Below, in pieces: positions 3 to 26,986 of a stretch of 57,523 nt of DNA. Origin of the DNA: Patescibacteria group bacterium (GTDB lineage Bacteria; Patescibacteriota; Gracilibacteria; JAHISY01); assembly GCA_043797545.1 (NCBI GenBank), contig JAZDPN010000073.1, positions 1-57,523 of the forward strand. Reading direction: 5' to 3'. The notes below the pieces were generated by a model. It saw only the letters and a list, made by a program, of their open reading frames with translations. It was not told the DNA's origin and did not search any database. The translations under genes were made by a program, and so were the position numbers. Positions within the stretch are counted from its first letter, which is position 1; each line of letters starts with the position of its first letter.

Positions 3-263
3 AAATCGGGATTCCAATTTTTCGCGACGACGCTCTCGATCTCGCCGCACAAAAACGCCAACTGGTTGAACGAGATTGGTCGCGAATTGTCAAGCAGGCA
101 CGGTGTGAAATTTTTGGAAGCCGATTGGAAAAAATGCGATGGTTTCAAAAAATCACTCGGGCTCTCGAAAGATGCCAAGCTCGTCCGCCAAAATTACTGC
201 GGCTGTGTCTACTCACAACGTGCCAGTAGACAACTAGTAGACACGAGTAGACAAAATGACTAG
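3..263 (+). CDS. queH: epoxyqueuosine reductase QueH (DUF208), 3' fragment entering from the left edge
   Basis: Frame 3 is open from the window edge. The translation ...TTLSISPHKNANWLNEIG...LVRQNYCGCVYSQ ends in the QueH-type YCGC motif. The last 14 codons (RASRQLVDTSRQND) are encoded by the GTAGACA repeat module. Confidence 0.6.
   Translation, partial: KSGFQFFATTLSISPHKNANWLNEIGRELSSRHGVKFLEADWKKCDGFKKSLGLSKDAKLVRQNYCGCVYSQRASRQLVDTSRQND
225..254. repeat. GTAGACA heptamer-array module, copy A (AGTAGACAACTAGTAGACACGAGTAGACAA)
   Basis: Three GTAGACA heptamers spaced 10-11 nt apart. Near-identical to 1436-1465. Forms the C-terminal extension of queH. Confidence 0.9.
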
Positions 264-981
264 ACAACTCCCCCATCGCGCTTCGGAAAAAATGTCCACT
301 CGACAGCCGTTTTTTTGGGGCAAGACGAGTAGACAGGTTGTCGACATTCTCGGTTCCCCGCTCGACAACTTTGAGCAGCTGAATGAGCGCGCTTTGACGC
401 GCAATCGACAGACTCAGACAACTTCGCGCGATCTGCCTTTTAAATTTTGGCCGAAAGACAAAAATTGGAGCCTCGTTCAGCTCGCCGATCAGACTTTTGG
501 CTGGCTGCCGAATCGATATATAGTGAAACAAAAAAGCGCTAATTATTGGGAAAAAATTAAATTAGCGCCGAAAAACAAGCTGACTCCCCTGCTTTGCCCG
601 ACTCCAGCTAAATTTGAGAAATTTTTGAATCAGTTTAAAGGCGTTCCCTATCTCTGGGGCGGCACAACGAAGTCTGGGATAGACTGCTCGTCTTTCGCGC
701 AGAAACTGTTTTTCGAGCTTGGCGGAATTCTCTTACCGCGCAATTCGCGTGAGCAAAAAAAATGCGGGCTATCTGTCCAGTCGACAAAGCTGTGTCCACT
801 CGATTTACTTTTCTTTGTCCACTCGACAACTGGTCGTCACCATGTCGGTGTCTACTGGAATGATGAAGTTGTCCACTTCTGTCTAGACAAGCGTGGTTTG
901 TCTACTGAGTCGCTCGATTCGATGCAGAAACGCTATAATCACATCGCTACTCGGCGCATTTTCAAACTTCGAAATGCTTAA
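256..981 (+). CDS. NlpC/P60 family cell-wall peptidase with an SH3-like N-terminal part
   Basis: Contains VPYLWGGTTKSGIDCSSFAQKLF (catalytic Cys) and GRHHVGVYW (His). The start codon is uncertain because the N-terminus runs through repeat-derived sequence (TRQ/STRQ/TSRQ). Confidence 0.7.
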   Translation: MTRQLPHRASEKMSTRQPFFWGKTSRQVVDILGSPLDNFEQLNERALTRNRQTQTTSRDLPFKFWPKDKNWSLVQLADQTFGWLPNRYIVKQKSANYWEKIKLAPKNKLTPLLCPTPAKFEKFLNQFKGVPYLWGGTTKSGIDCSSFAQKLFFELGGILLPRNSREQKKCGLSVQSTKLCPLDLLFFVHSTTGRHHVGVYWNDEVVHFCLDKRGLSTESLDSMQKRYNHIATRRIFKLRNA

Positions 982-2554
982 GCAAATCAAGGCTGCGAAA
1001 AATATTCACGTCGTCGGAGTGAGCGGCACCGAGGGTGCGGCTGTGGCCCTTTTTTTGACAAAACTCGGACTCAAATATACGGCTCATGACTTCAGTGAAG
1101 AAGCTAAATTTCAGAAAAATTTTCTAGCGAGTCATCTCGGTTATTCGCCTGCAGAAAGAGAAAAAACACTTAAAGTGATTTTCAAAAATAGCTCTCTTAA
1201 CTTCAAGGAGAATTATCTCAAAGAGATTGAAAGTGCCGATCTGGTTTTCGTCTCCCAAAACTGGGAAGCCTACTCACCTAATCAAAAGTTGCGGAAAATT
1301 TTTGCCAAAAACCCGAGGAAATTCATGACGATCACTCAGCTTTATTTTGGAATTTTCCCGGGAAAGATTTTGGCTGTGACCGGAACGAACGGTAAATCGA
1401 CAACCACTAAGCTGATCGCTGAAATTATGTTCGCCAGTAGACAACCAGTAGACACGAGTAGACAATTAGCAGCGAAGTCCGCCGAAGCCTTGGTGAAGGC
1501 GGAACAACGGGTAGACAGTCGTGTTTATTTTACCGGCAATGACCGTCGTAATATCCAAATTCTCGACCAATTCGACAAATGGAAAAAGTCGGATTGGCTC
1601 GTGATCGAGGTATCCAACCGCCAGCTAAAATTTCCGCTTGGTCGCGCACCAGAAATCGGAGTGATTACGAATGTCACCCCGAATCATGTTGATGAATATA
1701 TAGATGGTTTTTCGGCTTACAAAAAGGGAAAATTTGCCTTGGTCGCTGGCCAAAAAAATAATGATATATGTGTGTTGAATTATGACAATATAATCACGCA
1801 CAGCTTTGCGAAAAAGGTAAAATCAAGAGTCGTTTTCTTCTCTGCTAAGAAGAAGTTGTCTACTGGCCTGTCCGCCGTAGCCTCCGCGAAGGCGGGTGTC
1901 TACATCGATGCTGGTTGGATAGTAGACAAAAACCAATCTGTCGACTCGCCAGCTAAAGTTTGCCTGCGCGCCGAAGCCAAAGTGGCAAAGGTGTGTCTAC
2001 TCGACAAGGTAAAATTGATCGGGGAACACAACTTTGAGAATGTTTTGGCGGCAGTCGCCGCGACTCGTGCGGCCGGAGTGAGCGCAAAGATAATTTGCCA
2101 AACGATCGAGCAATTTCGCGGCATCCCACAAAGACTGGAAGTTGTTTTCGAGAAAAACGGTGTGAAATTTATCAATGACTCAGCTTCGACAACGCCCGAA
2201 TCAACCATCGCGGCGTTGCAAAGTTTTCCAAAAAAATCGGTCAATTTGATCGCAGGCGGGGAGTCCAAAGGCATGGATTTTGCCAAGTTGGCACGTGAAA
2301 TTCGGACTCAAAAAACGCGAGTTATTCTACTCGAAAGTCCGCTCGCAAAAAGTTTGGCAAACGAATTGCGAAAATTAAAAGTTGGTTTTGAAATTGTGAA
2401 AGATTTGCGCACGGCTGTCGAGCTTTCCGCTCGCAATGCGCAAAAAGGCGACATCGTGCTCTTATCTCCGGCGGGTGCGTGGTTTTGCTATTTCTCAGGA
2501 AAAATCCCGCTCGGCGGCAGGGGATTCGAGCAATTTGCCAAAGCCCTGGCTTAA
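974..2554 (+). CDS. murD: UDP-N-acetylmuramoylalanine--D-glutamate ligase (Mur ligase family, MurD-like)
   Basis: N-terminal Rossmann motif VVGVSGTEGAAVALFL, P-loop GTNGKSTTT, and the C-terminal motifs NDSASTTPESTIAAL and GGESKGMDF. The ATG at 974 overlaps the stop of the previous gene. Three in-frame repeat insertions are present. Confidence 0.8.
   Translation: MLKQIKAAKNIHVVGVSGTEGAAVALFLTKLGLKYTAHDFSEEAKFQKNFLASHLGYSPAEREKTLKVIFKNSSLNFKENYLKEIESADLVFVSQNWEAYSPNQKLRKIFAKNPRKFMTITQLYFGIFPGKILAVTGTNGKSTTTKLIAEIMFASRQPVDTSRQLAAKSAEALVKAEQRVDSRVYFTGNDRRNIQILDQFDKWKKSDWLVIEVSNRQLKFPLGRAPEIGVITNVTPNHVDEYIDGFSAYKKGKFALVAGQKNNDICVLNYDNIITHSFAKKVKSRVVFFSAKKKLSTGLSAVASAKAGVYIDAGWIVDKNQSVDSPAKVCLRAEAKVAKVCLLDKVKLIGEHNFENVLAAVAATRAAGVSAKIICQTIEQFRGIPQRLEVVFEKNGVKFINDSASTTPESTIAALQSFPKKSVNLIAGGESKGMDFAKLAREIRTQKTRVILLESPLAKSLANELRKLKVGFEIVKDLRTAVELSARNAQKGDIVLLSPAGAWFCYFSGKIPLGGRGFEQFAKALA
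1436..1518. repeat. Composite repeat copy B: heptamer array + hairpin TCCGCCGAAGCCTTGGTGAAGGCGGA + terminal GTAGACA
   Basis: Positions 1436-1465 match copy A in 29 of 30 nt. The hairpin at 1478-1503 is almost identical to 3498-3523. Translated in frame as SRQPVDTSRQLAAKSAEALVKAEQRVDS. Confidence 0.9.
1857..1903. repeat. Short hairpin element flanked by direct TGTCTAC heptamers (opposite orientation)
   Basis: Layout is TGTCTAC(1857-1863) - CCGCCGTAGCCTCCGCGAAGGCGG - TGTCTAC(1897-1903). Translated inside murD as STGLSAVASAKAGVY. Confidence 0.75.
1921..2001. repeat. 81-bp element with 8-bp terminal inverted repeats AGTAGACA / TGTCTACT and a central hairpin TTTGCC...GGCAAA
   Basis: The inverted termini are at 1921-1928 and 1994-2001. 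The central stem is 1959-1964 / 1984-1989 and contains a GCCGAAGCC core as in the other copies. In frame inside murD. Confidence 0.7.
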
Positions 2555-2707
2555 TTATTTTTCCTCGTCGACCGGCTCATATTTGAGCGGTTTGAGCGAA
2601 GTAATCAGGATCTCGCAACCGCAATTTTCGCATTCGACAACTTCGCCAGCCTCGCTCGGCTCGTGCTCAATTTTGGTCTTACAATCTGGGCAAATAATCG
2701 TTATCAT
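2555..2707 (-). CDS. LysW-like zinc-ribbon amino-group-carrier-type protein (50 aa)
   Basis: The sequence MITIICPDCKTKIEHEPSEAGEVVECENCGCEILITSLKPLKYEPVDEEK has the CPxC...CxxCG ribbon, the GE-V-EC spacing and the acidic tail of LysW/ArgW. The C-terminus is DEEK rather than the canonical EDWGE. Confidence 0.6.
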   Translation of the reverse strand: MITIICPDCKTKIEHEPSEAGEVVECENCGCEILITSLKPLKYEPVDEEK

Positions 2708-2720
2708 TTGCGAGGATTTT

Positions 2721-3761
2721 ATGAATTTAATTTTGAATGTCAACCAAAATTTTGCGAATTTTTTGGACGAGTCGCGGCGCGACATTTGGCGCTACGCGAA
2801 AATTTTGAGCGATTCGAAAATTGTGAATTTTGTCGACCCGCTGCAAAAAGATTTCACGAAAATCGAGCGAATAGGGGATTTTTGGGTGAAACGGGAAGAC
2901 GAGAGCGCAGTCGGCTCACACAAATTTCGTGCACTCGCGTTCCAAATTTCCCAACTTCTAGAAGCGAAAATCGACCGTGCTGTCCTCTCAAGCTCTGGTA
3001 ATGCTGCAATCGCGGCCTCGCAAATCTTGCCAGAAAATACGAATTTGAAGCTCTTTGTGTTTTTGTCGAAGAAGACACCACCCGCCAAGTTGGCCGGGCT
3101 GAAATTTTCGAAAAACCTTGTTCCGATCCTCTCCGAGCGCCCATTGCGGATGGCGAAATATGCCGCGAAACACTTTGATTTAAGAGATTTACGTCCGTCA
3201 GTCGATCCTAACGCTGCTGTTGGTTTTTGCTCGCTCGGCTTCGAGATTTTCGAGCAAAAACCAGCTATTGAGAATATTTTCAGCTTCGCGACGAGCTTCG
3301 CGAGCGTCCGCGGCATCGCCGAGGCGTTTAAGTTTTTAGTCAAAATCGGTGCTCGGCAAAAAATGCCGAAGATTTTCGCGGTCACCTCGAGTGGAAGGCT
3401 GGCTGGCGAGTTGAGCAGGCAACGAGTAGACACGAGTAGACAAGCAAAAGTTGTCCAGTGGACAGAAGTAGACACAAGTGGACAACGAGTAGCGAAGTCC
3501 GCCGAAGCCTCGGCGAAGGCGGAACAGCTGGTAAATATCTCTGATGCAGAAATTTTGGCGACTCGTCAGAAACTGCCCGAGCTGAAAACTTCGAATGAAG
3601 GTTTGGCGAGTCTCGCCGCCGCCACGAAAATCAAACCGCAAGGGGAGACTTTGGTGATTTTGACGGGACGAGCTTGGCCGGACAAAAATGTTGATCTGGA
3701 TAAATTTGAAGAAGCTGACAATTTTGCAGAAGCTGATAAAATGGTCGCTCGTCATGGCTAA
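2721..3761 (+). CDS. PLP-dependent enzyme, fold type II (TrpB/ThrC/cysteine-synthase-like)
   Basis: Contains the lysine motif ESAVGSHKFRA, the SSSGNAAIAAS segment, and a glycine-poor TSSG loop. Carries repeat copy C in frame. The ATG at 2721 lies 13 bp from the divergent lysW-like start. Confidence 0.6.
   Translation: MNLILNVNQNFANFLDESRRDIWRYAKILSDSKIVNFVDPLQKDFTKIERIGDFWVKREDESAVGSHKFRALAFQISQLLEAKIDRAVLSSSGNAAIAASQILPENTNLKLFVFLSKKTPPAKLAGLKFSKNLVPILSERPLRMAKYAAKHFDLRDLRPSVDPNAAVGFCSLGFEIFEQKPAIENIFSFATSFASVRGIAEAFKFLVKIGARQKMPKIFAVTSSGRLAGELSRQRVDTSRQAKVVQWTEVDTSGQRVAKSAEASAKAEQLVNISDAEILATRQKLPELKTSNEGLASLAAATKIKPQGETLVILTGRAWPDKNVDLDKFEEADNFAEADKMVARHG
3425..3527. repeat. Composite repeat copy C (heptamer array, TGTCCAGTGGACA palindrome, hairpin TCCGCCGAAGCCTCGGCGAAGGCGGA)
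   Basis: GTAGACA occurs at 3426, 3436 and 3468, and GTGGACA variants are also present. The hairpin at 3498-3523 differs from 1478-1503 at 2 nt. Translated as SRQRVDTSRQAKVVQWTEVDTSGQRVAKSAEASAKAEQ. Confidence 0.9.
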
Positions 3762-4791
3762 TCTCCCCCGCAAAACGATTCATCTAGTCTCGCCTGACCC
3801 GCGCAAAATCGAGGGGTTGGAGCTGGCGTGGCCGCATTTCAAAATCTTCGTCTCGAAAATGAGTCCAGCGCTGCGCAAGGCCGAAAGAGCTGGCGCTGAA
3901 ATCGTGAATTTGAAGCTGCCAAAAATCAAGACTACGAGCGATTTATTGGTCGAATTAATCGGCCGGAAATTGGTGCGCAAGGGGAACCGGGTTTTGGTTT
4001 TCAAAAACCTGCCGAAAATCGAGCGGCTCGCCGCGAAACACAAATTCGAAATCCTAATGCCCGGATCGAGCTTTTTGAATTTGCTCGAAGACAAAATCAA
4101 CTTCGTGGATTTTTGTCACGAATTCGCGCTGCCGATTTTGCCGACGACGATTCGCGAGCTAAATCTCGTGCGCTTTCTCGAACCGGTCGTGATTCAGACG
4201 CGACGCGGACACGCCGGTGAGTCGACTTTTTTTATCCGCTCGCCCAAAGAGCTGGACAATTTGAAACGCAAAATAGGGGACTGGCCGGTCAAAATCACGC
4301 CGCTCAAAAAACTGCCTACTTTCACGCTCGATTTTTGTGTCACTGCGAACGGGATTTACGCGACGCAGCCGTTTTTCCAAATCACGGGCGATCCGAAATT
4401 GAATCCGCTGCCAGGCGGGACGGGCGGAATTGATTTCGACATCGCGGCGAAATTGTCGGACGCGACGAAAGGACGCATCGGCGCGCTCGTCGAGCTCGTC
4501 GGCGCAGCTTTGGAAAAAATCGGCTACCGCGGAATCGCGGGAATCGATTTCCTCGTCGATGACGCCAGCTCGAAAATTTGGCTGCTCGAGCTCAATCCGC
4601 GGCTGCTGAGCAATCTCGGTTTCGTGACACGGAAACAAGTCGAGGCGGGGGAGATTCCCCTTTTACAAATCCATCTTTTGGAATTTTTGGGTGAGGATTT
4701 ACGGAAATTCGATGCGCCAAAATTGAGCCGCGTGAATTCGGGAAGATTTGAAAATCCGCACCCGGACGCGCGGATGTTGATCGAAATTTAG
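3754..4791 (+). CDS. ATP-grasp family ligase
   Basis: The C-terminal GYRGIAGIDFLVDDASSKIWLLELNPRL is a typical ATP-grasp Mg/ATP motif. The ATG at 3754 overlaps the stop of the PLP gene (ATGGCTAA). Confidence 0.65.
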   Translation: MANLPRKTIHLVSPDPRKIEGLELAWPHFKIFVSKMSPALRKAERAGAEIVNLKLPKIKTTSDLLVELIGRKLVRKGNRVLVFKNLPKIERLAAKHKFEILMPGSSFLNLLEDKINFVDFCHEFALPILPTTIRELNLVRFLEPVVIQTRRGHAGESTFFIRSPKELDNLKRKIGDWPVKITPLKKLPTFTLDFCVTANGIYATQPFFQITGDPKLNPLPGGTGGIDFDIAAKLSDATKGRIGALVELVGAALEKIGYRGIAGIDFLVDDASSKIWLLELNPRLLSNLGFVTRKQVEAGEIPLLQIHLLEFLGEDLRKFDAPKLSRVNSGRFENPHPDARMLIEI

Positions 4792-5571: not shown

Positions 5572-6570
5572 TTACTTCTCGTTAATCGTCTCTTTCACTT
5601 TCACGCCGAAATGTCGGCCAGCGTCCTCGACGAACGCGAGAACCTCGTCGCCTTTTTTCAGTTTCGTGATCGAGATCGGTTTACCGTTCGGCTGAGTCAG
5701 GCGAATTGTTTCGGCATTTTGCATCACGAGCGAAATCGGCTTCGTGCCAACTTTGCCACGGACATGGAGCATCGGCCGTTTTTCGATTTTCGCGCGACCA
5801 ACCGCGAGTGGAAAAGTGTTGCCCTTTTCATCGCAAATCAAAATCTGTTTGCCCGCGCCAACTTCGTTGAGATAGCCGGTTTTGTTGTCTGGGAGACGCA
5901 CATACGCGTGCACCGCGCCGACATTCACGCGAAACGGACGCGGATCGCAATACGGACTTTCGACATTTTCGTTGAAAACGAGAAACATCGCCGAGCTGGA
6001 ATCTCCCGCGAGAATTCCCTGTCCGGGAGTGAGAATCGCGGTCGTGTCGACACACACGCGGTCGGCGACACCGACCGGCTCGGTCGACTCAATCTTCGCG
6101 CGAACGAGCTGCAATTTTTCGTTGTTCGCCTCACGGACGACTTTTCCCGTTGCGACGATCTCGGCGGGTTTCGCGGTTTCGAGGAGGATTCCATCCGCGC
6201 CGACTTCCATCGTCGTGAGCGCGAGTTTCGCTTTTTGCGCGTTCGGGACGGATTGAATGATTTTGGTGGTTTTGGAGATCAAATTCTCGAGCGGAATGAT
6301 CGACCAGTCCTTGTTGCGAATAATCTTCCAAACGCGCTCTCCGGCCGCGACAACGTCATTCTCGACCTCTTTCGCGGTGATCGTGAACTCGCGGACATCT
6401 TTGCCAATTTTCAAATCCCCGTCTTCGGCGACGATCTGGATCAGCCCCAATTCTTTCGCTTTCTTCGCAAAACCTTTCGGCAAAACAAGCGCGTCGGCTC
6501 CGGACTCGATCGCGGTCGTGACCAAATTTTTGTTCCATTTCGGGATGGAAACCCAAAAAAGTTTTTTCAT
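5572..6570 (-). CDS. 3-dehydroquinate synthase II (archaeal-type DHQS, AroB-prime)-like
   Basis: N-terminus KKLFWVSIPKWNKNLVTTAIESGADALVL, later VHAYV and ETIRL segments, and a length of about 330 aa fit my recollection of the PF01959 family. Assigned from memory only. Confidence 0.5.
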   Translation of the reverse strand: MKKLFWVSIPKWNKNLVTTAIESGADALVLPKGFAKKAKELGLIQIVAEDGDLKIGKDVREFTITAKEVENDVVAAGERVWKIIRNKDWSIIPLENLISKTTKIIQSVPNAQKAKLALTTMEVGADGILLETAKPAEIVATGKVVREANNEKLQLVRAKIESTEPVGVADRVCVDTTAILTPGQGILAGDSSSAMFLVFNENVESPYCDPRPFRVNVGAVHAYVRLPDNKTGYLNEVGAGKQILICDEKGNTFPLAVGRAKIEKRPMLHVRGKVGTKPISLVMQNAETIRLTQPNGKPISITKLKKGDEVLAFVEDAGRHFGVKVKETINEK

Positions 6571-6638
6571 AAATGAATTAGGACTCGGAAATTTTAGCAT
6601 CTCTTGAATTTGAGGGGGAGTGCGCTAAACTCGTCGGG

Positions 6639-9060: not shown

Positions 9061-9543
9061 GTGAAAATTGCGCTTATTTCAGATTCGCACGGCGCGCTCG
9101 ATCGACTCGAGGAAGTTTTGCACAATTTCGACACGGCTGGGATTCGCGAAATCGTGCACGCGGGGGATTTCGCGCTTGGAGAAATCGTGGAACTTTTGTC
9201 TAATTTTCCACAGTTGAGTTTCCGGATCGCACGGGGAAACTGCGATGTTGATACTGAGAAAATTTTGGCAATTGCGAATTTACCGAATGTCGAACTCGAG
9301 GAAATTTTGGAGTTCGAGCTCGGCGGACGGCGCATCGCGGTCGCGCATCGGATTCGAGATTTAGCCAATTCAGACGCGCCAATCTTGATTTCTGGACACA
9401 CGCATATTCCGAGCGCGAAAGCGGTGAATGGAAAATTATTTTTGAATCCGGGCTCGCTGATGGATGACGGCGGCTATTTCATTTTGGATTTGGCGAATTT
9501 AATTGTTGAGCGCAAGCTTTTTTCTGACAAAGCTCTGGCTTAA
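9061..9543 (+). CDS. YfcE/MJ0936-family metallophosphoesterase
   Basis: Motifs ISDSHG, HAGDF, GNCD and SGHTH. GTG start. Confidence 0.75.
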   Translation: MKIALISDSHGALDRLEEVLHNFDTAGIREIVHAGDFALGEIVELLSNFPQLSFRIARGNCDVDTEKILAIANLPNVELEEILEFELGGRRIAVAHRIRDLANSDAPILISGHTHIPSAKAVNGKLFLNPGSLMDDGGYFILDLANLIVERKLFSDKALA

Positions 9544-9567
9544 AATTGGGCTGCGCTATTTGGAAAC

Positions 9568-10083
9568 ATGGACCGAATCGAAGTTCACAAAACGATCGCC
9601 ATCGTCACTATCAAGCTAATGATTTTGCAGCTGTTTTTTGCCTTGGTATATTTGGCGACATCTTTGATTAGTGATTCTGTTGATCTATACAACAACGGCA
9701 CTTTTATGAATCTAATCGCTTACGACAGTCTGACTTTTATAATTATTGCTTTGGTGCATTTGGCAATCACTTCGTATATTTTTTTGCAGTGGACGATGGA
9801 AAAATACATTCTCCTGCCCGACAAAATCCGCCATCAGTGGGGGATTCTTTTGCGGCAGACCAATTCTTGGGACATTAGCAATATCGAAACTGGCTATATC
9901 ACCGAAAGCGTAGTCGCGCGGCTTTTTGGTTATGGCACGATTACCTTTCACAGCCCGACTTTGGAAACGCGCGTTGTTTTGCGCGATGTTCCCTCGCCTT
10001 CTTTGGTCACGAATTACATTGAGAAAAATTTGGCTTTGCTTGGTAAATCGCCAATTAAGTATTTGAAAGCTGATTCTAAATAA
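9568..10083 (+). CDS. Membrane protein with a bacterial PH (YdbS/YdbT-like) domain
   Basis: Two N-terminal TM helices, then a WDISNIETGYITESVVARLFGYGTITFHS pattern. Confidence 0.45.
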   Translation: MDRIEVHKTIAIVTIKLMILQLFFALVYLATSLISDSVDLYNNGTFMNLIAYDSLTFIIIALVHLAITSYIFLQWTMEKYILLPDKIRHQWGILLRQTNSWDISNIETGYITESVVARLFGYGTITFHSPTLETRVVLRDVPSPSLVTNYIEKNLALLGKSPIKYLKADSK

Positions 10084-10142
10084 AAAATAATGTTGCATTT
10101 AGCTAACTTTGAGTTAGAATTAGCTCACTTTAATTTTTAAAA

Positions 10143-22622: not shown

Positions 22623-24161
22623 TTATTCTTCTTCGGCCTTTTCGATCAGCTCGTGAAAACGAATATACTCGGTCAAGCGCAAGCCTGTGAATTTACCGAG
22701 CATCGCGTCAAAAGCGATGAAGAGAAGGATGATCTCGGAGTGCGCCAACATCAAAGTCTGGAAATCGCTCCACTCGCCGACGACGAGATAGCAGGCTAGG
22801 GAAACGAGCAGCAGCTCGGCAAACATTTGAACTGCGGGCCGAGAACCTTGCTCGCTTTGAATCGAGACGAACTTTTCGGCCAAGGTGCTCATGATGAGCA
22901 TGGGAAAAATCGAGGCAGCGATCAGATCCGCCACGCGGAAGTATGAACCGAATGGCGCAAGCCAAGTCAGTAGCACGATGGAAGCAAAGATCGCGAAAGC
23001 GACGAAGGAAAGGACGATCGCCAGCCGCGGCGTGTAGGCCAAGCGGTAGCGCCGCAAAATTTTGCGGATCAAAACCGAGGAGGCAACCACGACAAGGAGA
23101 ATCGCGATGCCCAGCTTCCAGCCGATTGCCAGGAAAGAAAGTGTCAAAACCGAAGGCGTATAGACTCCGAAAGTCGTGATGCCGATAATCTGCTTGAGAA
23201 AAGCGACCAGCGTCGCGATGACTGGCAGCATCAGCACGAGCAGAATGACGGAAGAGGGTATGCCCGCAGCGATAAGGTAATTGACAAGGAAAGAAAGTGG
23301 CGCCGTCAGAGAAAATTTTTCCAGTCCGGAATCAAGCAAACGAAAAGGAATTGCTTGCTGTTCCAACTTGGTCGCGATCTCGGCTGGATTCTCGGCCAGG
23401 ATAATTTCACGCAGCGCATCTGGCTGGGTCAGTAAAATCTCGCGCGGAGCGAGTGAACCGAACGTACCGCGCGCGATGCGCGCCAGTGAGTCAAGACTTT
23501 CGTCGGAAATCACAACAATCTCTTTGGCGGAAAAATCCAGACGCGGATTGAGCTTCTGGACAAAATTGGTCAGACCATTGAGTCCATCGCTACCGCTCGT
23601 CCAAAGTGCAATCAAATCCGTCGAGCGCAGTGTTTCAAATTTTTCCTGCAGGGCGGCTGTCAGCGTATTTTCCTCGGCGAGAAAACCAGCCTGCTCGTCC
23701 GTCGCCCAGGCCGTCTCGAGTAGAATATTTTTTTCCTTAGCTGCCGCCGCGAGCGCAGCAATCTTATTCTCATAAAGCAGCGAATCTGTCAGCAAAAGAA
23801 TATTTTTTTGAAAAACAAAAAGCGGGAAGCTGGCCTCCGCGGAGTCCCGACCGGACTGCATTTTAAGTTTGATTTCGTAGACTCCAGGCGTGCGAAAAGC
23901 GTGGGAAACTGATTCGCCGCTCGCGATCGAGCCGTCTCCGAAATTCCAGCTGAAAACGGCTGGCCGCTCAGTGAAAGGATTGAGTGAATGGGCCGCCGAG
24001 AATTCAGCGTTCGTCTCAACTTTGACCGACGGATCGGCTGAAATCACGGCCTGCAGCTCCGATTCAGCAGCCTGAGATGAAGCTGCCAAAGCCGGACCAG
24101 CGAGCCAAACCACTGCCAAAAACGCGAGTAAAATCTTTGGGAAAATTCGTTGAAAATTCAT
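22623..24161 (-). CDS. PKD-domain protein fused to a 7-TM membrane domain
   Basis: Signal peptide, PKD motif FSWNFGDGSIASGESVSHAFRTPGVYEIKL, and a C-terminal 7 TM helices. Confidence 0.6.
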   Translation of the reverse strand: MNFQRIFPKILLAFLAVVWLAGPALAASSQAAESELQAVISADPSVKVETNAEFSAAHSLNPFTERPAVFSWNFGDGSIASGESVSHAFRTPGVYEIKLKMQSGRDSAEASFPLFVFQKNILLLTDSLLYENKIAALAAAAKEKNILLETAWATDEQAGFLAEENTLTAALQEKFETLRSTDLIALWTSGSDGLNGLTNFVQKLNPRLDFSAKEIVVISDESLDSLARIARGTFGSLAPREILLTQPDALREIILAENPAEIATKLEQQAIPFRLLDSGLEKFSLTAPLSFLVNYLIAAGIPSSVILLVLMLPVIATLVAFLKQIIGITTFGVYTPSVLTLSFLAIGWKLGIAILLVVVASSVLIRKILRRYRLAYTPRLAIVLSFVAFAIFASIVLLTWLAPFGSYFRVADLIAASIFPMLIMSTLAEKFVSIQSEQGSRPAVQMFAELLLVSLACYLVVGEWSDFQTLMLAHSEIILLFIAFDAMLGKFTGLRLTEYIRFHELIEKAEEE

Positions 24162-24165
24162 ATTT

Positions 24166-25095
24166 TCATTTTACAAAAGTGAGCCACTTTTTGTATTTCG
24201 GAATTTCTCCGGCCGCCGCCGCGAGAAAAGCCTGTCTCAGCTTTTGCGTAAATTGGCCGCTCTGGCTTCTGCCAATTTTCTTATTGTCTAGCGAGCCGAT
24301 CGGCTGCACCTCGGCAGCCGTACCGGTGAAGAAAACTTCTTCGGCCGAGTAAAAATCCTTGAGCCGGTAATTACCCTCCTTGGTCTTGAGTCCGAATTCT
24401 TTGGCGGCCAGCTCGACGACTGAGAGACGCGTGATGCCAGCAAGAATCGAACCGAGTTTCGGAGTATGCAAAACACCTTTCTTGAGGAAGAAAATATTTT
24501 CACCCGGACCTTCAGCCACAAAACCGCGATGGTCGAGAAAAAGCGCCTCATCGTATTTCGCTTTTTTGATCTCGAGCGAAGCAAGGATGGAATTAATATA
24601 GTGGCCGCAAACTTTGGCATCGCCCACGACTGAGTCGGGATGCAGGCGGATGAATTTGGAAGTCTTGACGCGAATCGGCTTGCCGCCGAGATAAGAGTCC
24701 CAGGGCCAGCAGGCAATCGCGAGCGAAACTGGCGCACCGACTGGATTGAGCCCCATCTTGCCGTAGTCGAAAAATGCAATCGGCCGAATATATCCCGCTG
24801 GAATTTTATTCGCGGCGACGGTTTGGCAAATCGCTTTGGCAACCGCACTTTGGGAGTAAGGGATTTTCATCTCGAGCGCGCGAGCTGAATAAAAAAGACG
24901 TGCGACATGTTCCTTGAGGCGAAAAACTGCCGGACCGTTTTTGGTTTTGTAAAAACGGATGCCCTCAAAAACGCCCGAGCCGTAATGCAAGGCGTGTGAA
25001 AGAACGTGAACATTCGCATTCTGCCAAGCAGTCAAATGGCCATTGAGCCAAATCTTTTTGGTGATTTGGAAAGAAGCTTTGGGAAGTTTGGACAT
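24166..25095 (-). CDS. ilvE: Branched-chain amino acid aminotransferase (class IV)
   Basis: Family signatures: WLNGHL...A.V.VLSHALHYGSGVFEGIR, EGPGENIFF and TPKLGSILAGITR. Confidence 0.85.
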   Translation of the reverse strand: MSKLPKASFQITKKIWLNGHLTAWQNANVHVLSHALHYGSGVFEGIRFYKTKNGPAVFRLKEHVARLFYSARALEMKIPYSQSAVAKAICQTVAANKIPAGYIRPIAFFDYGKMGLNPVGAPVSLAIACWPWDSYLGGKPIRVKTSKFIRLHPDSVVGDAKVCGHYINSILASLEIKKAKYDEALFLDHRGFVAEGPGENIFFLKKGVLHTPKLGSILAGITRLSVVELAAKEFGLKTKEGNYRLKDFYSAEEVFFTGTAAEVQPIGSLDNKKIGRSQSGQFTQKLRQAFLAAAAGEIPKYKKWLTFVK

Positions 25096-25120: not shown

Positions 25121-26986
25121 TTAATTTCCAATTCTCTGATTCTTCCAGTAAAGAATGTTGTAGCCTTTTTCGAACGCCGCAATCGCGGCCGTCAGAATGT
25201 CTGGCGAGTTGGCGCGCGAGACGACCGAATTTTGTTCGGCGTCTTCCAGCTTCATGCGGACTTCGGTCGTCGCATCAGTTCCATTCGCATCGACGAAAAC
25301 CGCAAAATCCGTCAGTCGCGGTTCGAAGCTTTTGCCGGTCAGAGTTTTGCGGATCGCAGAAATAATAGCATCGACTGGCCCGACGCCTTGGCTCTCGGCC
25401 TGGAATTTTTGGCCGAGGAACTCAACCACGACTTTGGCGCGCGGCGGCTTTTTTTTGCGGACTGCCAGCTCATAATCCAAAACGCGCAGTGCGCGCCGGT
25501 CGGAGGTCAGGTCGGCCAACGCCTCTTCAATCAAGCTTTGGAGGTCGGACTTGGCGACCGCCTTGCCTTTGGCGAGAAAAGTTTCGATCGCGAAACGAAC
25601 TTCTTTTAGGTGCGAGCTTTTGAGATCAGCAGCAAATTCTTTTTTGAGGGTTTTTTGCAGCTCGGACAAAGTCGGCGTTTTTTGAAAAAGAATTTTGTGG
25701 CGCTCGGCAAAACCAGCGGAGCGAATGGCGTAGAGTTTGTATTTCAGGAAGCGGTCGATTTCGGCGATTTTCGGCTCGACCGCAGGCGGGATAGGGTGTG
25801 CGTCCAAAGCCGAGCGAGGATCTTTGAGGCCGTTACCAGTCGCGACCAAGACGACCGAATCAGACTTTTTGAGAATCTTTTTTTGTCTCAGTTGGCGCAG
25901 CGCAGCTAGAGGCAGCGCGCCGCTCGGTTCGGTGAAAATTGCTTCGCGTGCGCCTAGGTTTTTCTGTGCCTCGGCCAGCTCAGAATCACTAACCGCAATC
26001 GCCGTCCCGCCCGAATCGCGGATTGCAGCCAAGGCTTTGACGTCATCCAATGGTCTGCCGATCCCAACCGCCGAGCAAATCGTGTCCGGGTGAGCAACGA
26101 ACGGAGCTTTTTTTAATTTCTGCTGAAAAGCAGCCACCACTGTAGAGCAGCCGCTCGGCTGAACCGCAATCATTTTGGGTAATTTTTTGGTAAAGCCGAG
26201 CTGTTTAAATTCGAGGAAGCCTTTCCAAATCGCGGCCAGATTCGTCCCGCAGCCAACCGGCACAATCACAAAATCGGGGATGCGCCAATCCAGCTGCTCA
26301 ATGACTTCAAAGGCGATTGTCTTTTGTCCCTCGCTCCGGAAAACATAATCGCCCGCAAGATAGAAGTGATACTTTGCGGCCATCTTTGCGGCCAAGTCGC
26401 AGCAGTCAGCATAGGTTCCGCGAATCGAGAGAACGCGCGCGCCGTAACTCATCGCCTGCGCGAGTTTGCCGAGTGGCGTGTTCTCTGGAATGAGAACGTA
26501 GCAGGGTAGGCCGGCCAGCGCAGAGTACGCCGCGACCGATGCGGCCATATTGCCAGTCGAAGCAACTACAATCGCTTTGGCTTTTAGCTCGAGAGCTTTG
26601 GAGATTTCGACCAGCGAACCGCGATCTTTGAAAACGCCTGTTGGATTCAGGCCTTCGTTTTTGACGAATAAATTCGGTTGACCGAGTTCTTGCGCGATTT
26701 TATAAATTTTGACCAAAGGTGTTCCGCCCTCTGCCAAAGAAATGATTTTGGCGGTCGAAGCTAGCGGAAAAAACGCAAGGTATTTCTTGGCTGAAAGCGG
26801 AGTGTTTTTTTTGAATTCGCGGGCGACCTGTTTTTTCAGTGCGGAAAAATCGAACTCGAGATCAAGCGCTTCGCCGCAGCTTGGGCAAGCCGAGACCGAA
26901 TCTTGCTCGTCCACGACTTGACGACAAGCAACGCAGCGCAATTTATAATTCGCGTTTTTCAAATTCCAAAAAGATAACGCCACCAT
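25121..26986 (-). CDS. thrC: Threonine synthase fused to a C-terminal LeuA/CimA-type regulatory (LeuA_dimer) domain
   Basis: N-terminal zinc ribbon CVAC...CPSCG and PLP lysine motif NPTGVFKDRGS. The C-terminal 120 aa (VLDYELAV...GVGPVDAIISAIRK...LTDFAV...ILYWK) align with the C-terminus of the cimA gene in this same window (VLDYFVLN...GNGPVNALDLATRR...LKDYKV...YAIWK). Confidence 0.8.
   Translation of the reverse strand: MVALSFWNLKNANYKLRCVACRQVVDEQDSVSACPSCGEALDLEFDFSALKKQVAREFKKNTPLSAKKYLAFFPLASTAKIISLAEGGTPLVKIYKIAQELGQPNLFVKNEGLNPTGVFKDRGSLVEISKALELKAKAIVVASTGNMAASVAAYSALAGLPCYVLIPENTPLGKLAQAMSYGARVLSIRGTYADCCDLAAKMAAKYHFYLAGDYVFRSEGQKTIAFEVIEQLDWRIPDFVIVPVGCGTNLAAIWKGFLEFKQLGFTKKLPKMIAVQPSGCSTVVAAFQQKLKKAPFVAHPDTICSAVGIGRPLDDVKALAAIRDSGGTAIAVSDSELAEAQKNLGAREAIFTEPSGALPLAALRQLRQKKILKKSDSVVLVATGNGLKDPRSALDAHPIPPAVEPKIAEIDRFLKYKLYAIRSAGFAERHKILFQKTPTLSELQKTLKKEFAADLKSSHLKEVRFAIETFLAKGKAVAKSDLQSLIEEALADLTSDRRALRVLDYELAVRKKKPPRAKVVVEFLGQKFQAESQGVGPVDAIISAIRKTLTGKSFEPRLTDFAVFVDANGTDATTEVRMKLEDAEQNSVVSRANSPDILTAAIAAFEKGYNILYWKNQRIGN

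Follow-up and report, generated by a model that had tools for sequence, protein, structure and literature searches.

Amino-group carrier proteins of the LysW/ArgW type, which occur in Thermus, Sulfolobus, Thermococcus and haloarchaea and in the Streptomyces 2,6-diamino-5,7-dihydroxyheptanoic acid (DADH) pathway, are about 50 residues long and combine a four-Cys zinc ribbon and an acidic globular domain with a flexible acidic tail; their genes lie beside a gene for an ATP-grasp enzyme. Two motifs define these systems: EDWGE, ending in the Glu that accepts the substrate amine on its gamma-carboxyl, and GSWGR, with which LysX/ArgX reads EDWGE (PMC10433800). Here we describe a gene module on a contig of a Patescibacteria group bacterium (JAZDPN010000073.1, assembly GCA_043797545.1; all 57,523 nucleotides, hereafter the window) whose smallest protein shares size, zinc ribbon, acidity and ATP-grasp neighbour with LysW and resembles it over residues 5-49, but whose tail, ligase, partner enzymes and genomic setting differ. 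We propose that the module carries out a carrier-dependent step of peptidoglycan precursor synthesis at the stage of MurD and D-glutamate, a reading to which we assign a probability of about 40%.

On the peptidoglycan side, several described systems resemble parts of this module. In Enterococcus faecium, the aspartate racemase Racfm works with Aslfm, an ATP-grasp D-Asp ligase that attaches D-Asp through its beta-carboxyl to the epsilon-amine of the stem-peptide Lys. YkfC of Bacillus is an NlpC/P60 enzyme that cuts muropeptides. In Xanthomonas, L-Glu is added to UDP-MurNAc-L-Ala and is then epimerised, with ATP spent on the epimerisation. This MurD2/MurL pair constitutes a route for D-Glu into the stem peptide that does not use MurI (PMC8788868).

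The core of the module lies at positions 2555-4791 of the window and consists of three genes (the triad): a LysW-family zinc ribbon on the minus strand (the carrier), a divergent gene for a fold-type II enzyme dependent on pyridoxal 5'-phosphate (PLP), and an ATP-grasp gene. Together with genes for an NlpC/P60 peptidase and MurD they form a tightly packed set of five in the order nlpC/P60, murD, lysW-like (antisense), PLP enzyme and ATP-grasp (Table 1). The ATP-grasp ATG overlaps the stop codon of the PLP gene as ATGGCTAA (3754-3761), and the probable ATG of murD (974) overlaps the nlpC stop as ATGCTTAA; to judge from these overlaps, both pairs are translationally coupled. The lysW-like stop codon directly abuts that of murD. 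Exactly 13 bp (2708-2720) lie between the PLP gene and the lysW-like ATG (2707), and the orthologues of the small protein begin at the same Met. A preliminary description of this stretch had already named the 50-residue ribbon, its divergent orientation, the 13-bp spacing and the coupling of the PLP and ATP-grasp genes, and the coordinates bear it out on each point.

The triad is strictly co-conserved across distant lineages (48 + 80 loci). In a first survey, loci were collected through the ATP-grasp and PLP proteins, and their six-frame open reading frames (ORFs) were scanned with our own hidden Markov models (HMMs). A LysW-like ORF is present in 48 of these loci (44 distinct sequences). Carrier and PLP genes diverge in 48/48 of them, and the ATP-grasp gene follows the PLP gene in 46/48; NlpC/P60 lies next to the triad in 39/48, and a true MurD is adjacent in 24/48. 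To remove ascertainment bias, a second survey searched metagenome contigs with a carrier-only sub-alignment and yielded 80 loci, all of the Shapirobacteria-type subfamily. Here we found a divergent PLP gene in 59/59 loci that extend at least 1 kb in that direction, ATP-grasp in 49/49 that extend at least 2.3 kb, and NlpC/P60 in 63/63 that have 0.7 kb or more of sequence on the opposite side. Throughout the related loci (128/128), the carrier gene lies antisense inside an otherwise co-directional string of genes.

The lineages concerned comprise Gracilibacteria-like, Peribacteria, Parcubacteria, Microgenomates (Gottesman-, Shapiro- and Chisholm-type), WWE3, Wirthbacteria, Abawacabacteria and Chloroflexota. 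The module differs from LysW/ArgW systems in its range, which is the candidate phyla radiation (CPR) of ultrasmall bacteria and some Chloroflexota. The arrangement is far beyond chance, with order and orientation kept across many CPR phyla and Chloroflexota. In one Chloroflexota locus (L032) the five genes are reordered as grasp-murD-lysW-palp-nlpC, which argues for functional rather than merely inherited linkage.

The small protein (MITIICPDCKTKIEHEPSEAGEVVECENCGCEILITSLKPLKYEPVDEEK) starts with MITIICPDC, continues with CENCGC and ends in YEPVDEEK; its four Cys residues (C6, C9, C26 and C29) follow the pattern CxxC...CxxC. It matches the Pfam HMM PF21344 (Zn_ribbon_LysW) with 28.1 bits, above the cut-off of 27, and its top sequence matches in the PDB are LysW of T. 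thermophilus (3wwl, 5e-9) and of T. kodakarensis (5k2m, 5e-5), as expected from its initial recognition as LysW-like. The alignment to T. thermophilus LysW covers residues 4-48 of 54. The last five or six LysW residues, including EDWGE and the terminal Glu, are absent, and the tail extends 8 residues past the globular domain as against 13 in LysW. Against the lysW equivalog model TIGR01206 the protein reaches 39.6 bits, below the cut-off of 53.2, and it fails NF041070 with 20.4 bits against 75. Its isoelectric point (pI) is about 4.2. Electrostatic complementarity between the carrier and its partners (pI about 9.3) is nevertheless uninformative, since unrelated ORFs in the same loci have a median pI of 9.2.

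Instead of EDWGE with its terminal Glu, the window protein ends in DEEK, a difference that had been pointed out at the outset and that extends to its relatives. A terminal Lys is present in 128/128 related loci and EEK in 124/128. In the first survey all 48 carriers end in Lys, 44 of them in EEK and the others in DEK, QEK, VQK or VEK; in the carrier-seeded survey the tail is EEK in 80/80 loci. A profile search of 1.84 billion representative proteins gave 223 relatives at E<=1e-3. The best 150 matches include 90 small proteins. Of these, 28 cluster representatives, each standing for an independent 50%-identity cluster, end in ..EK and only 4 in ..EDWGE, and the rest have other acidic tails. NCBIfam holds no model for the EEK subfamily. 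On sequence grounds, we assign the small protein to the LysW family, within a distinct EEK-tail subfamily, and picture it as an acidic zinc-ribbon handle with a short flexible tail. The carrier fold is already known; what is new lies in its tail, in the partner enzymes and in the pathway context.

In NCBI and JGI annotation, close homologues appear either as 'lysine biosynthesis protein LysW' or under the name 'alpha-aminoadipate/glutamate carrier protein LysW' (P0157, P0158, P0160, P0161, P0163, P0164). Taken literally, these names, like the best Pfam and PDB family match, would make the protein an ordinary LysW/ArgW of alpha-aminoadipate lysine or of arginine biosynthesis. This is effectively refuted by the tail without EDWGE or terminal Glu, by the TIGR01206 score, by the missing partners and by DapA. 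No LysX/Z/Y/J/K gene lies nearby, and the annotated window ORFs (about 35 larger ones) yielded neither RimK/LysX-type domains nor any AA_kinase, semialdehyde dehydrogenase, class-III aminotransferase or M20 domain. This agrees with the absence of LysZ/Y/J/K remarked on earlier and leaves the module, unlike LysW/ArgW systems, without kinase, reductase, aminotransferase or M20 hydrolase. With DapA present in the window (327 bits, cut-off 206), lysine is made by the diaminopimelate (DAP) route, and the context is a non-lysine one in 128/128 related loci. By using the label 'lysine biosynthesis protein LysW', public databases probably misannotate these proteins systematically, which distorts metabolic reconstructions of CPR genomes.

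The ligase also sets the module apart. The ATP-grasp protein matches only the C-terminal part of ATP-grasp_3 (Table 1), together with PRK06524 at 89 bits against a cut-off of 684. No RimK (PF08443) or lysX model matches it at E<=1, and the GSWGR motif is not present in its sequence. Its AlphaFold2 (AF2) model has a mean predicted local distance difference test score (pLDDT) of 92.5. Foldseek returned more than 500 ATP-grasp matches, the best being PurK, biotin carboxylase, PurT and PurD, with template modelling (TM) scores of 0.6-0.7 and 12-17% identity. The conserved ATP/Mg residues of the fold are in place; within the family K114, E279, N281 and R283 are invariant. The protein has an ATP-grasp fold but is outside LysX/ArgX/RimK, so the analogy with LysX/ArgX drawn in the preliminary description holds by fold only. 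It also belongs to no clade with a known, unrelated substrate.

The third member of the triad, the PLP enzyme, has the PLP-lysine motif GSHKFR (K68) and an Asn loop, SSSGNAA (90-96), both invariant or nearly so in 44 homologues. Ser92, which precedes the Gly of the Asn loop, is at least 90% conserved; the same Ser is also present in non-racemase fold-II members. The enzyme keeps the PLP lysine and the SSSGN carboxylate loop, in which the Ser before Gly could be a second catalytic base, as it is in the fold-II Ser/Asp racemases. In a profile comparison with the PDB, ThrC is best (E 1e-30), and Ser and Asp racemases appear at 1e-16 to 1e-20. The AF2 model has a pLDDT of 89 that falls below 50 at residues 235-262; the segment at about 231-270 is a repeat expansion, in frame and disordered. 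Foldseek aligns the model with ThrC at TM 0.62-0.67, and its other neighbours are O-acetylserine sulfhydrylases (OASS) and dehydratases.

The best structural and profile matches are the short ThrC enzymes of T. thermophilus (1v7c) and B. subtilis (6nmx), in which the PLP lysine and the Asn loop are likewise conserved. Identity to them is 17-19%, however; their loop reads STGNTS, the Arg of their NPYR segment aligns with no conserved Arg here, and the PLP enzyme scores far below every ThrC cut-off (14.9 against 167.1 for TIGR00260, 61.6 against 358 for PRK08329). For comparison, the true ThrC of the window scores 245.7 and 321.7 with these two models. We conclude that the PLP enzyme is a family of its own, closest to short threonine synthases, and not a housekeeping ThrC. 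The PDB neighbours of the ATP-grasp and PLP models are generic and, as far as predicted models allow, do not identify substrates.

The surroundings of the triad point to the cell wall. Among the 48 loci of the first survey, ORF clustering found many genes of the division and cell wall (dcw) cluster: FtsW in 29 (usually directly after ATP-grasp), MraY in 27, MurG in 26, MurA in 21, FtsA and FtsZ in 19 each, and a penicillin-binding protein transpeptidase in 12. In the window itself only nlpC and murD, among dcw-type genes, adjoin the triad. The window-type order is nlpC-murD-carrier-PLP-ATP-grasp, and the Shapirobacteria-type order is FtsI-MurE-(ATE_C-like)-MurC/Mpl-like-MurA-MraY-NlpC/P60-carrier-PLP-ATP-grasp-FtsW. 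In the latter, the module fills the mraY-[murD]-ftsW slot, which is held by murD in canonical dcw clusters, and no MurD or MurF is found within the fetched flanks. We found no description in the full-text literature of a LysW-type protein in peptidoglycan synthesis or beside MurD.

Two side observations concern these clusters. Between MurE and the MurC/Mpl-like ligase there is a conserved gene that resembles arginyl/leucyl-tRNA-protein transferases (ATE_C; L004 2239-2838 and about 20 other Shapirobacteria-type loci). Furthermore, CPR-type dcw clusters occur in records with non-CPR labels, namely L030, L033, L041, L048, L057, L061 (labelled Gammaproteobacteria) and L083 (labelled Methanoperedens). 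In sequence type, their carriers are hardly distinguishable from the Shapirobacteria or Gottesmanbacteria carriers, and these metagenome-assembled genome (MAG) records are probably mis-binned or mislabelled.

The NlpC/P60 protein of the window has a maximum Kyte-Doolittle value of 1.18 over 15 residues and a DCS motif at residue 142. Its counterparts in related loci resemble it on both points, with no hydrophobic N-terminus and the catalytic DCS retained, and from these two features the family is predicted to be cytoplasmic and active. The canonical bond of NlpC/P60 enzymes is gamma-D-Glu-Lys/DAP, and MurD consumes D-Glu. In its predicted location, Cys catalytic motif, absence of a signal peptide and canonical bond (gamma-D-Glu to a diamino acid), the enzyme resembles the YkfC type. 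It differs from that type in being coupled or fused to MurD and in being accompanied by a carrier, a PLP enzyme and an ATP-grasp enzyme. Fusions of NlpC/P60 with MurD, 750-830 residues long, occur in some relatives (L003 2270-4774; contig of P0009).

A cytoplasmic NlpC/P60 that is coupled or fused to MurD would also suit muropeptide salvage, in which it would cut imported L-Ala-gamma-D-Glu-Lys/DAP peptides and pass D-Glu to MurD, the other proteins processing the remaining fragments. CPR bacteria have been described, in general terms, as host-dependent scavengers (PMC11665869), which fits this idea. Distant homologues of the ATP-grasp protein (in Planctomycetota, Deltaproteobacteria, Acidobacteria and others), which come without a carrier or PLP gene, adjoin oligopeptide ABC transporter ATPases and other ATP-grasp enzymes of the L-amino-acid-ligase type, and this too is in its favour. 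However, the 48 loci show no conserved transporter genes beside the module, the EEK tail of the LysW-type protein and the obligatory PLP pairing are left unexplained, and the module is also present in Chloroflexota, which have larger genomes. We therefore regard salvage as improbable.

The same context bears on a mechanism along the lines of the tethered amino acid modification suggested in the preliminary description. In it, the ATP-grasp enzyme would join the alpha-amino group of a substrate to the gamma-carboxyl of a tail Glu (E48 or E49), and the PLP enzyme would modify the tethered intermediate to make a non-standard amino acid unrelated to peptidoglycan. LysW family membership, the two conserved Glu before the terminal Lys and the strict co-conservation with an ATP-grasp enzyme are all in line with it. 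On the other hand, a fold-II PLP enzyme needs a free alpha-amino group, and in any cargo other than a diamino acid tethering through nitrogen would leave none. The absence of EDWGE and of the terminal Glu, a ligase outside LysX/ArgX/RimK without the GSWGR motif (PMC10433800), and a module embedded in dcw clusters, with MurD and NlpC/P60 as neighbours and not a biosynthetic gene cluster around it, also disagree with it. Given a tail that is five residues shorter and an invariant Lys end, ligation to the gamma-carboxyl of a C-terminal Glu cannot be assumed, and we give this model little credit. Of the preliminary description, LysW family membership, the co-conservation of the three genes and the absence of the canonical Lys/Arg pathway genes hold, and a tethered route may be at work; a free-standing route is not supported, as MurD, NlpC/P60 and the dcw context, which that description overlooked, point to peptidoglycan.

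A small ribosomal peptide beside an ATP-grasp gene could also be the precursor of a graspetide, a ribosomally synthesized and post-translationally modified peptide (RiPP) in which the ATP-grasp enzyme cross-links Glu and Lys side chains through a microviridin-like omega-amide, and the conserved E-E-K could form such a Glu-Lys lactam. By inspection, though, the peptide is a folded LysW-family zinc ribbon with a single EEK and not a leader-core arrangement. Nor is a protease or exporter conserved nearby, the gene lies inside a dcw operon with a PLP enzyme and MurD, and the ATP-grasp fold matches are PurK- and biotin carboxylase-like. This makes a graspetide highly improbable.

Returning to a carrier-dependent step at the MurD/D-Glu stage, two loci give hints of D-Glu as the relevant amino acid. 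In the Chloroflexota locus L010, D-glutamate-cyclase-like genes (PF07286 and PF14336; 907-2454) immediately precede nlpC-murD-carrier-PLP, and in L042 a PF07286-like gene (9451-10134) lies directly downstream of an ATP-grasp homologue. Across all fetched loci, a rough scan for MurI motifs gave one match, in a carrier-less locus; this says little, as murI need not be linked. Literature searches on CPR and glutamate racemase gave nothing relevant. The class-IV aminotransferase of the window, considered as a D-amino-acid transaminase and hence as a rival source of D-Glu, is IlvE.

A more specific chemistry can be formulated, the simplest that accommodates every part of the module, although we consider it doubtful in its details: a carrier of reversed polarity. 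ATP-grasp catalysis proceeds through acyl-phosphates, on which an amine then acts as nucleophile, and the epsilon-amine of the terminal Lys is the one invariant nucleophile of the tail; the Aslfm reaction offers a precedent. With ATP, the ATP-grasp enzyme would join the gamma-carboxyl of L-Glu to the epsilon-amino group of carrier Lys50, the reverse of LysW, where the amine of the substrate joins the carboxyl of the terminal Glu. Fold-II PLP enzymes need a free alpha-amino group, and the Asn loop is kept here, so that the cargo would need to be tethered through its side chain. Glutamate bound in this way keeps its alpha-amino and alpha-carboxyl groups free, and the PLP enzyme could thus form an aldimine and epimerise the tethered Glu at C-alpha to the D form. 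The cytoplasmic NlpC/P60 would then cleave the isopeptide, before or after MurD couples the amine of D-Glu to UDP-MurNAc-L-Ala. This cleavage would regenerate the carrier and release either free D-Glu or UDP-MurNAc-L-Ala-D-Glu. In this scheme we infer covalent loading, the attachment atom, glutamate as cargo and its epimerisation.

As proposed, the module would share with MurD2/MurL a solution for D-Glu without MurI that is encoded beside a murD-type ligase and costs ATP for the epimerisation. The Xanthomonas route, however, uses no carrier protein, PLP enzyme, ATP-grasp enzyme or NlpC/P60, and the MurD encoded here passes the cut-off of the canonical murD equivalog TIGR01087 (Table 1). The likeness to Racfm/Aslfm would be one of described function rather than of demonstrated sequence relationship: in both cases a racemase-type enzyme would be paired with an ATP-grasp enzyme joining a side-chain carboxyl to a Lys epsilon-amine in peptidoglycan precursor synthesis. 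There, the acceptor is a nucleotide precursor and not a protein tail, and the racemase is cofactor-independent.

Several points weigh against our reading. No covalent adduct on the carrier has been seen by experiment or structure, and the short tail may not reach a buried active site. The structures nearest to the ATP-grasp model (PurK, biotin carboxylase, PurT) belong to enzymes that activate bicarbonate or formate, not to amino-acid ligases. The PLP enzyme is closest to threonine synthases, not to racemases, and a Ser before the Gly of the Asn loop is also found in O-acetylserine sulfhydrylases. About half of the loci are without an adjacent MurD, and D-Glu-cyclase linkage is seen in two loci only. 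A few non-CPR MAGs have PALP + ATP-grasp pairs without a nearby carrier (L012, L027, L063), and one Chloroflexota genome has its ATP-grasp gene on another contig (L010 vs L052). Finally, most bacteria manage this task with MurI, a simple racemase that uses no cofactor, so a route to D-Glu that consumes ATP and takes three proteins needs a rationale. A 433-residue gene after pyruvate kinase in L010, considered as a diverged ATP-grasp gene, is unrelated.

Some of these points bear equally on the main rival explanation, a non-covalent partner. Here, the EEK tail would plug or position the PLP enzyme, as the tail of serine acetyltransferase does in O-acetylserine sulfhydrylase, and the enzymes would act on free amino acids, for example as a racemase and a D-amino-acid ligase that make a stem-peptide or cross-bridge residue as in the Aslfm system. 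The carrier is linked more tightly to the PLP gene (48/48) than to ATP-grasp (46/48), as such a partnership would predict, and OASS structures with the C-terminal peptide of a partner are among the neighbours of the PLP model (e.g. 7djq). The carrier-less PALP + ATP-grasp pairs and the short tail are compatible with it as well, and the dcw context suits any role in amino-acid supply for peptidoglycan. However, the only role known for LysW-family proteins is that of a covalent carrier (PMC10433800). An invariant Lys after two acidic residues, kept across phyla, looks like a reactive handle or a ligase recognition motif, and a non-covalent partner gives no role to the ever-present cytoplasmic NlpC/P60 or to its fusion with MurD. 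On balance we consider this explanation unlikely, if less so than salvage.

If the carrier-dependent reading with the reversed chemistry were true, much of CPR and some Chloroflexota would possess an ATP-driven, carrier-mediated D-Glu pathway in place of glutamate racemase. An extra dcw module in a large part of bacterial diversity would add a step and enzymes to an essential and well-understood pathway. It would also extend the LysW-type carrier principle from amino-acid and natural-product biosynthesis to the cell wall, possibly with the attachment chemistry reversed. In this sense the module is a concrete, testable candidate for how these CPR and Chloroflexota organisms obtain or handle D-glutamate, and it would serve as a lineage-specific target or marker.

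Table 1. Positions of the module genes, of candidate signals between them and of other genes in the window.
Feature	Position	Strand	Basis or remark
NlpC/P60 cysteine peptidase	256..981	+	own HMM 5e-115; NCBIfam NlpC/P60-type matches 1e-21; Pfam NLPC_P60 on orthologues
MurD (UDP-MurNAc-L-Ala:D-Glu ligase)	974..2554	+	TIGR01087 237.7 bits, cut-off 211.95; in-frame repeat insert 1433-1513
LysW-like zinc ribbon, 50 aa	2555..2707	-	PF21344, TIGR01206 (sub-cut-off), 3wwl; stop TAA
Divergent spacer between lysW-like and PLP genes, 13 bp	2708..2720	.	contains GAGGA, likely ribosome-binding site of the PLP gene
Sigma-70-like promoter match, TTGACA-16-TAAAAT, 11/12	2716..2743	-	inside 5' end of the PLP gene; consensus match only
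Fold-type II PLP enzyme, 346 aa	2721..3761	+	PALP 75.6 bits, 5.5e-21
ATP-grasp ligase, 345 aa, uncharacterised family	3754..4791	+	ATP-grasp_3 29.3 bits, 1.1e-6
Archaeal-type 3-dehydroquinate synthase II	5572-6600	-	PF01959, 375 bits
Protein with PKD domains and 7TM_transglut domain	22623-24161	-	
Threonine synthase fused to C-terminal LeuA-type allosteric (LeuA_dimer) domain	25121-26986	-	unusual combination; adjoins IlvE (24166-25095)

The region around the carrier gene also contains candidate expression signals. No Shine-Dalgarno sequence was found upstream of its ATG at 2707, and the promoter match on the same strand would start transcription at about this ATG; together these suggest a leaderless mRNA for the carrier. 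A terminator-like hairpin (consensus match only) lies antisense within the 3' end of murD. Read-through from murD would yield RNA antisense to the carrier gene.

The window has a G+C content of 49%. As homologues are labelled Gracilibacteria, we considered an alternative genetic code; TGA is the stop codon of 7/36 window genes, which rules it out, and the standard code applies.

A short repeat (GCCAGTAGACAACNAGTAGACACGAGTAGACAA) is found at window positions 222-254, 1433-1513, 1870-1895 and 3411-3533, and its 17-mer core is confined to the first 3.5 kb. At two sites it is followed by a 67-nt segment, 87% identical, with a GC-rich hairpin. Within murD and the PLP gene the repeat is in frame and encodes '..SRQ(P/R)VDTSRQ..AKSAEA..KAEQ..'; the orthologue in L001 has a shorter version, 'QRVDNRVDNF'.

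Among the other genes of the window, that for 3-dehydroquinate synthase II is syntenic with the module in the close relatives L001 and the contig of P0009. The 7TM_transglut family is also found beside distant ATP-grasp homologues (L065).

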